This document shows positions 31,606 through 31,934 of a stretch of 44,255 nt of DNA, one piece after another. The position numbers and the translations under genes are program-made. The stretch lies in the sequence record PV845598.1, one strand, 5' to 3'. Positions within the stretch are counted from its first letter, which is position 1; each line of letters begins with the position of its first letter. This stretch comes from Escherichia phage vB_EcoS_GZMU_E2010. Under the pieces are notes generated by a model. It was given only the letters and a program-made list of their open reading frames with translations. It was not told the DNA's origin and did no database searches.

Positions 31606-31634
31606 TTGCGTACCCCAACATAATAGGGTACTAT
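31606..31634 (+). promoter_or_regulatory. sigma70-like early promoter (class II)
   Basis: TTGCGT, 17-bp spacer accccaacataataggg, TACTAT. Confidence 0.5.
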
Positions 31635-31660
31635 TCATTACAACGAAACGAGGAGGGTGT

Positions 31661-31906
31661 ATGCAGGAATTACCTAGTTGCGAACGTGAGTTCATTAGCG
31701 GGTTCATACCGGTTAATAATTTCAGTATATCGGACTTATTTGACCTAAGAGAAAGCGGCAGACTTTGGGTGTGCAATGCGAAAGATGCTTCAAAAGCTAG
31801 AGTATGGAACTTTAGTTTAATGCGCCGTCCGAACAAATCTGGCGAAGGTGCTGTCGGTATGGATTTGTTGCAACGCAAAGGTAAACTATTTATGAGAGTG
31901 CGATAA
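31661..31906 (+). CDS. hypothetical protein (81 aa), opposite-strand insert in the head module
   Basis: GGAGG SD 5 nt upstream; own promoter and terminator; no recognisable domain. Confidence 0.6.
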   Translation: MQELPSCEREFISGFIPVNNFSISDLFDLRESGRLWVCNAKDASKARVWNFSLMRRPNKSGEGAVGMDLLQRKGKLFMRVR

Positions 31907-31910
31907 AACT

Positions 31911-31934
31911 AAGGCCCCAAACGGGGCCTTTTAT
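31911..31934. terminator. bidirectional intrinsic terminator
   Basis: AAGGCCCC-aaac-GGGGCCTT followed by TTATCATT; identical hairpin to 12638. Confidence 0.65.

Follow-up and report, generated by a model that had tools for sequence, protein, structure and literature searches.

ORF81, a probable accessory gene in a cassette slot between the Rz-like spanin and Hoc-like genes of Guernseyvirinae phages

The genome of Escherichia phage vB_EcoS_GZMU_E2010 (record PV845598.1) raises the question of why one short open reading frame (ORF) of 81 codons, here called ORF81 (31661–31906, plus strand), should lie within a late head module whose genes all run the other way. The window, meaning the whole 44,255-bp stretch analysed, is the complete genome of a Kagunavirus (Guernseyvirinae) phage, one of a group of small virulent siphoviruses, and its nearest GenBank records show ~90% identity across ~80% of a 24-kb query. 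A first-pass annotation made from the sequence had described ORF81 as an accessory gene with its own promoter and terminator, expressed early from within the late region. In the explanation that best fits the present analysis, ORF81 would be carried as cargo by a transcription unit complete in itself (a 'moron') and housed in a dedicated slot between the Rz and Hoc genes of Guernseyvirinae siphoviruses, the unit comprising a promoter, a leader of ~20 nt with a strong Shine–Dalgarno sequence, an ORF that purifying selection maintains and a hairpin terminator predicted to work in both directions. Host RNA polymerase would make from it a monocistronic mRNA of ~290 nt (~31641 to ~31935), which would run opposite to the late head operon, independently of it, and be switched on together with a small-gene operon of the phage, probably early in infection. 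The basic 9.3-kDa product would be non-essential and conditionally useful.

A cassette slot between the Rz-like and Hoc-like genes

The surroundings of ORF81 agree with the first description, which had placed it opposite to its minus-strand neighbours and between spanins and head genes. On its left is an Rz-like spanin gene (30900–31286, minus strand; phrog_2536, E = 4.4e-55), overlapped by the gene for the Rz1 spanin (30791–31054, minus strand; phrog_5672, 4.5e-30), and on its right a gene for a Hoc-like head decoration protein with an Ig-like domain (31934–32395, minus strand; phrog_3945, 5.3e-85). Between these flanks the elements of the unit follow one another on the plus strand: a predicted promoter at 31606–31637, made of TTGCGT (31606–31611), a 17-nt spacer and TACTAT (31629–31634); a Shine–Dalgarno sequence, GAGGAGGG (31650–31657), with GGAGG four nucleotides ahead of the ATG; ORF81 itself; and a hairpin, AAGGCCCC-AAAC-GGGGCCTT (31911–31930), which scores as terminator-like on both strands and so bears out, at the level of sequence, the bidirectional terminator originally marked at 31911–31934.

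Only two of the 181 phage records matched in a megablast search with 31300–32000, LM08P2 and RP180, match this interval throughout, many others doing so only to 31656. The slot was then compared in a sample of 39 IMG/VR loci, collected via the Hoc-like protein, and 11 GenBank loci, the Rz-to-Hoc interval being cut from 48. This synteny comparison, proposed as a check when ORF81 was first annotated, revealed conserved left and right blocks around an exchanged middle. The left block (31287–31637, 351 nt) retains 93–99% identity in every cassette-bearing locus compared and ends at the −10/+1 region of the promoter, while in a subset of loci identity runs on through the leader to 31656. It restarts at 31903 with AAAACTAAGGCCCC-loop-GGGGCCTTTTATCA, where the right block begins (31903–31936; 82–97% identity wherever aligned, absent in PK1); this boundary holds the terminator hairpin and is kept behind every cargo type, with variation confined to the loop. 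The same end points, at 31637 (promoter end) or 31656 (leader) on one side and 31903 (terminator) on the other, are seen in 30+ loci.

Between the two blocks the sampled loci carry at least 13 unrelated cargos besides ORF81, or an empty form, the cargo lying always on the plus strand and just behind a Shine–Dalgarno sequence. Small cargos include, together with the 81 amino acids of ORF81, proteins of 57, 67, 83 and 94 amino acids and a 55+74-amino-acid pair. There are also a signal-anchored protein of 70–75 amino acids, a 33+114+25-amino-acid set including a protein that, as read by eye, has an N-terminal lipoprotein-like signal sequence, a 173-amino-acid protein (phrog_3007, annotated as RusA-like), a 179-amino-acid endonuclease VII-like protein, a 235-amino-acid Dam-type methylase and an N6_N4 methyltransferase of 242–246 amino acids (6e-30). 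The leader type around the Shine–Dalgarno region of ORF81, CGAAACGAGGAG, recurs in other slot cassettes, and the 173-amino-acid cargo is found behind two different leader types, which demonstrates cargo shuffling. The empty slot, seen in nine loci, measures 342–346 nt, lacks the promoter and has a different hairpin, and a 510-nt remnant in K1H has kept the promoter and lost the ORF. As for composition, the GC content of ORF81 is 42.3% vs 50.8% for the genome, which places it in the lowest 4.3% of 246-nt windows.

The moron-like cassette anatomy of the ORF81 unit and its accessory status can be asserted with reasonable confidence, and the latter was indeed the original proposal: only two of the 181 GenBank phages carry the gene here, and in others the slot is empty or filled by one of at least 13 other cargos. 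The position of ORF81 between the Hoc-like gene and the scaffold and capsid genes might instead point to a head-assembly or virion accessory protein. This is, however, extremely improbable for a gene that lies on the opposite strand behind its own promoter, is absent from most relatives, where methylases and nucleases take its place, and has homologues in a non-structural small-gene operon; there is also no match to a structural family in PHROGs, where homology to a structural or assembly protein, named by the first-pass annotation as the finding that would overturn its proposal, was looked for.

The moron concept of lambdoid and other tailed phages reportedly goes back to Juhala, Hendrix and colleagues in 2000. 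Like a moron, ORF81 is, at the sequence level, an added gene, provided with promoter and terminator motifs of its own, between conserved genes that are adjacent in relatives; it is present in some genomes and absent from others, its composition deviates towards a GC content below that of its surroundings, and it would be transcribed separately from the surrounding late operon. Unlike the lambdoid morons it belongs to a virulent siphovirus, with no expression from a prophage state, and unlike morons scattered over genomes it occupies one fixed slot, in which a resident promoter and terminator are conserved around many alternative cargos. A second precedent is offered by the PeSL cassettes of T4-type phages, which bracket small, non-essential ORFs annotated without function and mark where indels and replacements between close relatives begin and end (PMC2839356, PMC4122927). 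The slot resembles them in that its replacements stop at promoter and terminator elements that are repeated in the genome. It differs in that the promoter (four copies) and terminator (three copies) are separate, one at each end of the cassette, in the number of copies (3–4 per genome, in small siphoviruses), and in a left-hand homology that includes a highly conserved block of ~300 bp and not the promoter alone. Since the fused terminator–promoter motif is lacking, the ORF81 cassette is not classed as a PeSL. The moron or accessory cassette is a known kind of element, and what can be reused here is the definition of the slot with the list of its cargos; Kagunavirus passages of the BASEL paper make no mention of this slot. 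ORF81 taken alone is one more ordinary orphan accessory phage gene. The slot, a single and easily recognised site in phages of E. coli and Salmonella that form a common group, supplies a short candidate list for anti-defence and exclusion screens and a natural landing pad for engineering these 41–45-kb phages. Kagunaviruses are reported to be highly sensitive to restriction–modification systems (PMC11990801).

The coding strand and the relatives of ORF81

The frame itself is found as first annotated, an ATG-initiated ORF of 81 codons in the ORF list behind a strong GGAGG Shine–Dalgarno sequence, encoding a soluble protein of 9.3 kDa and pI 9.9. It overlaps, however, an antisense ORF of 112 codons (31540–31878, minus strand) that might be the true gene, with ORF81 as its shadow frame. 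RefSeq/GenBank annotates the antisense ORF in Raoultella phage RP180 (HOV38_gp06; locus L001, 2741–3094), and the antisense frame is open in all three slot copies and shares part of the synonymous-change signal with ORF81. All 13 nucleotide differences between ORF81 and an IMG/VR relative (L015) fall on third positions and are synonymous in the ORF81 frame, and the ratio of nonsynonymous to synonymous substitution rates (dN/dS) is 0–0.03 among close pairs, but codon-position counts alone do not separate the strands because the two frames share their third codon positions. The strand was decided by amino-acid conservation, antisense stops, start signals and operon context. In the window the antisense ORF begins with TTG and has no Shine–Dalgarno sequence. 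Its frame contains an in-frame stop in all three homologues from early operons (phages NTEC3, phiSD1 and VIPECOMC04) and is the less conserved of the two (65–71% vs 78% for the ORF81 frame; dN 0.12–0.14, with synonymous sites saturated). In these three phages the ORF81 homologue lies on the same strand as its operon neighbours, with overlapping start and stop codons, so that an antisense gene would oppose a tightly packed operon, and distant homologues keep the ORF81 motif. ORF81, not the antisense ORF, is the gene, and the converse is very unlikely.

Relatives of the protein were sought at several depths. A word-indexed search gave 19 close relatives and the identical protein on 46 contigs; the 16 phage records retrieved by tblastn extend to Salmonella phages TS6 and STP-1, whose protein is 37% identical. 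When 1.84 billion representatives were searched exhaustively with a profile, five clusters came back, four of them real; the fifth (P0027, 3108 amino acids with seven repeat stretches) is a repetitive surface protein and was rejected as spurious. A second profile search, over 5.8 billion proteins, produced 30 clusters at 90% identity and added three further small orphans. All members of the family measure 48–97 amino acids, are unnamed and domain-free, and come from Guernseyvirinae only; searches of 5,426 complete E. coli genomes and 72,556 PLSDB plasmids matched none.

Members of the family occupy three genomic positions, each behind its own or an operon promoter. The first is the Rz-to-Hoc slot, which also houses P0026 and P0028 (30–39% identity to ORF81) in phages whose Hoc and Rz are 69% and 38% identical, respectively, to those of the window. 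The second is the small-gene operon of NTEC3 (gp37, YP_010749170.1), VIPECOMC04 (VIPECOMC04_00024) and phiSD1, in which the homologue is the second gene, behind a promoter of the same family as that of the cassette. These proteins are 78% identical to ORF81 over codons 1–79 and carry a C-terminal extension of 3–16 amino acids, and they are encoded in a polycistronic unit, vs the monocistronic one predicted in the window. Nucleotide homology between slot and operon copies runs from the ATG to about codon 78, from which it follows that only the ORF moved. (In the phiSD1 record this protein is labelled 'tail length tape measure protein', clearly an error.) The third position is that of the TS6-type relative (locus L006, 2890–3250; 37% identity), located between the scaffold and Rz1 genes and antisense to head genes. 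Its cassette has its own near-consensus promoter (TTGACA-17-TAATAT), a GC hairpin terminator and a leader, AACTTAAACAGGAG, that it shares with many Kagunavirus slot cassettes.

Across the subfamilies 12 columns are invariant (M1, F11, F15, L29, G33, L35, R55, P57, N58, G61, G74, L76), and the core motif, in which R-x-P-N-(K/S)-(S/T)-G precedes a helix and G-(K/R)-L-(F/Y), is kept at 30–39% identity. By these comparisons the family is an old, mobile, phage-restricted passenger of Guernseyvirinae, always opposite to structural genes. Such a passenger could be neutral or selfish, in a slot that tolerates any insert and whose cargo is reshuffled by recombination with no adaptive activity directed at the host. 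The high turnover of cargo would fit, as would the empty form, the ORF-less K1H remnant and the endonuclease VII/HNH-like gene of some slots, which could drive exchange. That ORF81 is only a passenger of this kind is nevertheless rather unlikely in view of strong purifying selection (dN/dS 0–0.14), of 12 columns remaining invariant at such low identity, and of the retention of the family at three loci, even where Rz is only 38% identical.

Promoter set, timing and the conserved non-coding block

The 32-nt promoter motif of the cassette is one of four copies in the genome, 84–100% alike. A copy at 437–468 (minus strand) heads a leftward small-gene operon, divergent from the helicase and replication genes, whose first gene (214–414) falls in phrog_12538. 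Another, at 22478–22509 (plus strand), heads a second reversed island (22537–24520) in the tail module, and the fourth lies at 43136–43167 (minus strand). In NTEC3, phiSD1 and VIPECOMC04 the same motif, with 1–3 mismatches, precedes the operon's first gene by ~32 nt; in VIPECOMC04 this gene likewise belongs to phrog_12538. The early-operon leaders, TCGAAACGAG followed by GAGGAG, are of the same type as that of ORF81. Of the 'class II promoter' initially assigned to ORF81, the promoter has its counterpart in the plus-strand motif at 31606–31637, and 'class II' was the annotator's own label. The terminator, too, has relatives elsewhere in the genome, at 12633–12667 (the 3' end of the replication module) and at 24523–24557, where it closes the second reversed island.

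Overlapping the −10 element of the cassette promoter is a palindrome, AATAGGGTACTATT (31622–31635), of the class AATAG-N4-CTATT. This class has 13 sites in the genome (439, 4068, 4112, 6694, 10340, 22494, 31622, 43138, 43296 and four others), mostly in non-structural regions, against 0.92 expected, a count reached by none of 100 shuffles. The palindrome stands at or beside the −10 of all the promoters of this set and of the near-consensus TTGAC(A/T/G)-17-TATAGT promoters of the replication module. A matching motif was detected seven times in phage fBC-Eco01 by PHIRE and ascribed to a phage RNA polymerase (PMC9825357). From its placement in the present sequence we infer a shared operator at which a phage regulator may act on host-polymerase promoters, and the copy over the −10 of ORF81 would place the cassette under the same switch as the rest of the set.

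A further palindrome, AACTATTCGAATAGTT (31538–31553), carries the AATAG and CTATT half-sites in everted order relative to that of the promoter. It is perfect over 16 bp, the length noted beforehand, and is present in cassette-bearing and empty slots alike, with identity extending to 31590; one such match occurred in 19 of 100 shuffles, so that a single match is not rare. The vicinity of these two elements invites the view that ORF81 is itself a small regulator that binds nucleic acid and controls transcription or replication of the phage, acting for instance on the AATAG/CTATT palindromes or on a structured element. The protein is basic (pI 9.9, net charge ~+5), and it adjoins both the perfect palindrome and a promoter with an operator-like palindrome. 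Yet it is absent from ~90% of the relatives that keep the same promoters and palindromes, and therefore cannot be the regulator of that regulon; moreover, no helix–turn–helix or other DNA-binding domain was detected in it and its fold matches are insignificant. A regulatory role for ORF81 is thus unlikely.

The early timing proposed for ORF81 would follow from its promoter, which is that of the small-gene operon beside the replication genes, where the ORF81 homologue is itself promoter-proximal. The sole RNA-seq study of Guernseyvirinae used coarse time classes and called no gene in the Rz-to-Hoc slot (PMC12645636). Several points count against the picture drawn so far. In that study an Imm-like gene, K1B4_045, was assigned to the 'late' class together with DNA polymerase and methylases, structural genes being 'middle' (PMC12645636), and the counterpart of K1B4_045 in the window, the first gene of the reversed island, sits behind the same promoter type as ORF81. 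In the K1B4 data the island gene thus behaves like replication-side genes and unlike its structural neighbours, and early timing is neither confirmed nor cleanly refuted. The cassette promoter is a weak match to the sigma-70 consensus, agreeing at 7 of 12 positions (all of TTG and of TA...T are kept), for which reason a generic consensus scan missed it. Finally, the exchange of cassettes by homologous recombination, which would use the left block and the short stretch around the terminator, is suggested by the homology boundaries alone, and the right block is just 34 bp long.

The second reversed island spans 22478–24557 on the plus strand within the minus-strand tail module, from the sister promoter (22478–22509) to the sister terminator (24523–24557). 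Its first gene is superinfection-immunity-like (PF14373, 4e-13), and it also encodes small membrane proteins and a 376-amino-acid metallophosphoesterase or 'DNA repair exonuclease' (phrog_704).

To the left of the cassette the homology shared among slots includes a highly conserved non-coding block upstream of Rz (31287–31396, with a GC hairpin at 31311–31330) and, adjoining it, a multi-hairpin non-coding element of ~143 bp (copy B, 31397–31539). The latter matches 634–777 (copy A), upstream of the rightward early and replication genes, and is the 143-bp repeat recognised from the outset beside ORF81. Over 31287–31539 the median identity is 98.2–98.6% (43 loci for 31287–31396), whereas Rz reaches 94.0%, the scaffold gene 95.9% and Hoc 88.3%; the block holds 96–99% in Jerseyvirus-like loci in which Rz falls to 75–80%. 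The slot copy of the 143-bp element is present in 45 of 46 scorable loci, the divergent TS6 lacking it. The second copy (634–777 type) is found in only a subset of records, and in five of six phages examined lies upstream of a rightward early helix–turn–helix gene. In the window a perfect inverted repeat with a 12-bp stem, GCTTGAAGTACC-(9 nt)-GGTACTTCAAGC (824–856), lies between copy A and the first rightward gene (874).

The 12 sequence variants of the element share a layout of 3–4 hairpins, kept by compensatory changes in stems of different sequence, the apical stem reading GGAC/GUCC, GUGC/GCAC, CGGAC/GUCCG, GUGCC/GGCAC or CACG/CGUG and the outer stem GUAAC/GUUAC, GGAAC/GUUCC or CGAGC/GCUCG. 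In the raw alignment 87% of cells pair, vs 25–42% in slid controls, and four pairs change on both sides, a contrast that is inflated because the structure was derived from one of the aligned sequences. The folding free energy of the element is not significantly below that of shuffles (z −0.5 to −1.65), and RNAalifold did not recover the variable hairpin from a MAFFT alignment, in which it was misaligned. Rfam gave nothing at gathering thresholds and chance-level matches only at relaxed ones, and a tRNA search found none. A 36-codon minus-strand ORF annotated here in Bas70 was considered as an explanation and rejected, not being conserved between the two copies of the element. Candidate roles include a structured leader or antiterminator RNA, a small RNA and a single-strand DNA signal.

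Possible function and genome setting

The statement that ORF81 has no recognisable domain survived the searches. There is no match in Pfam, PHROGs or NCBIfam, and the best hit of its profile against PDB sequences has E = 1.8. A PADLOC match (PDC-M02B, E = 0.005, 13.7 bits) was treated as chance, since only 4 of 16 members of the family alignment match. An AlphaFold model built from the 16-sequence alignment has a predicted local distance difference test score (pLDDT) of 85.6 and a predicted template-modelling score (pTM) of 0.73, with the order helix–strand–helix–strand–strand–helix–strand and the invariant loop joining strand 3 to helix 3. Foldseek searches with this model returned nothing significant from PDB (best E 0.47) and a best E of 5.5e-3 from BFVD, where all matches are uncharacterized phage proteins. 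The profile and structure searches advised by the first-pass annotation therefore yielded no significant match in either sequence or fold libraries. The weak fold matches are repeatedly ATP-grasp enzymes (GshB, Ddl, RimK, PurK and RiPP ligases), and the M-R-R-P-N-K-S-G-E-G stretch of ORF81 resembles by eye the K-P-x-x-G-x-G loop of that fold, a likeness with no statistical support. ORF81 is an orphan protein, in no described family and with no recognisable fold relative; its confidently predicted structure, lacking a known relative, and its movement between early operon and head module make it a tractable test case.

As none of the libraries returned a significant match, the function of ORF81, first proposed to be exclusion, anti-defence or host modulation, can be approached only from its context. 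The gene is conditionally retained, under strong purifying selection and probably expressed with the non-structural genes, and the slot is also used by methyltransferases, nucleases and membrane proteins. On this ground a role in anti-defence or host take-over is the most likely one, as a tentative preference that stops short of an even chance. The protein would bind a host or host-defence macromolecule through the invariant R-x-P-N-K-S-G loop. Some points pull the other way. The association with methylases is circumstantial, and nucleases and a clamp/RusA-like protein, none of them an anti-defence gene, occupy the slot as well; being basic, ORF81 is unlikely to work as a DNA mimic. No significant similarity to known anti-defence, host take-over or defence families was found in Pfam, PHROGs, NCBIfam, PADLOC or the PDB profile search. 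A bolder form of the proposal, in which ORF81 would represent an effector family of new fold that disables a host defence or host factor through R-x-P-N-K-S-G, while the Rz-to-Hoc interval would be a dedicated integron-like expression site, where anti-defence and competition genes are swapped in between a resident regulated promoter and a terminator and the conserved element takes part in control or exchange, is conceivable, if doubtful.

ORF81 might otherwise serve competition between phages, by superinfection exclusion or interference with a co-infecting phage, and not the countering of host immunity. The sister island behind the same promoter opens with an Imm-like superinfection immunity gene, and the alternative cargos include a signal-anchored protein and one with a lipoprotein-like signal, features typical of exclusion proteins. 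The best-known exclusion proteins are membrane-associated. ORF81, unlike the membrane superinfection-exclusion proteins (Imm/Sie/Cor-like), has no apparent transmembrane segment or lipoprotein signal: its grand average of hydropathy (GRAVY) is −0.37, no hydrophobic stretch or lipobox was seen when its 81 residues were read directly, outside a dedicated transmembrane predictor, and the model is of a globular alpha/beta protein. This makes phage–phage competition an improbable role for ORF81.

A scaffold gene (30007–30762, minus strand; ORF list and PHROGs) lies beyond the spanin genes, and on the other side the Hoc-like gene is followed, on the minus strand, by genes for a Mu-F-like head morphogenesis protein, portal and terminase. 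The Mu-F-like protein (32395–34287, minus strand) has 630 amino acids, vs ~347–358 in K1H, EM1, Bas70 and hz69, and its extra length is an intein (PF14890, residues 263–526, 3e-9). Opposite the intein-coding region lies an ORF of 250–269 codons without family match (32713–33522, plus strand), which could be a free-standing homing endonuclease encoded antisense. At the ends of the window an exact 127-bp duplicate (1–127 = 44129–44255) fits a complete genome that either was assembled as a circle or is terminally redundant, and the small-gene operon that starts at 437–468 on the minus strand crosses the junction of the two ends.

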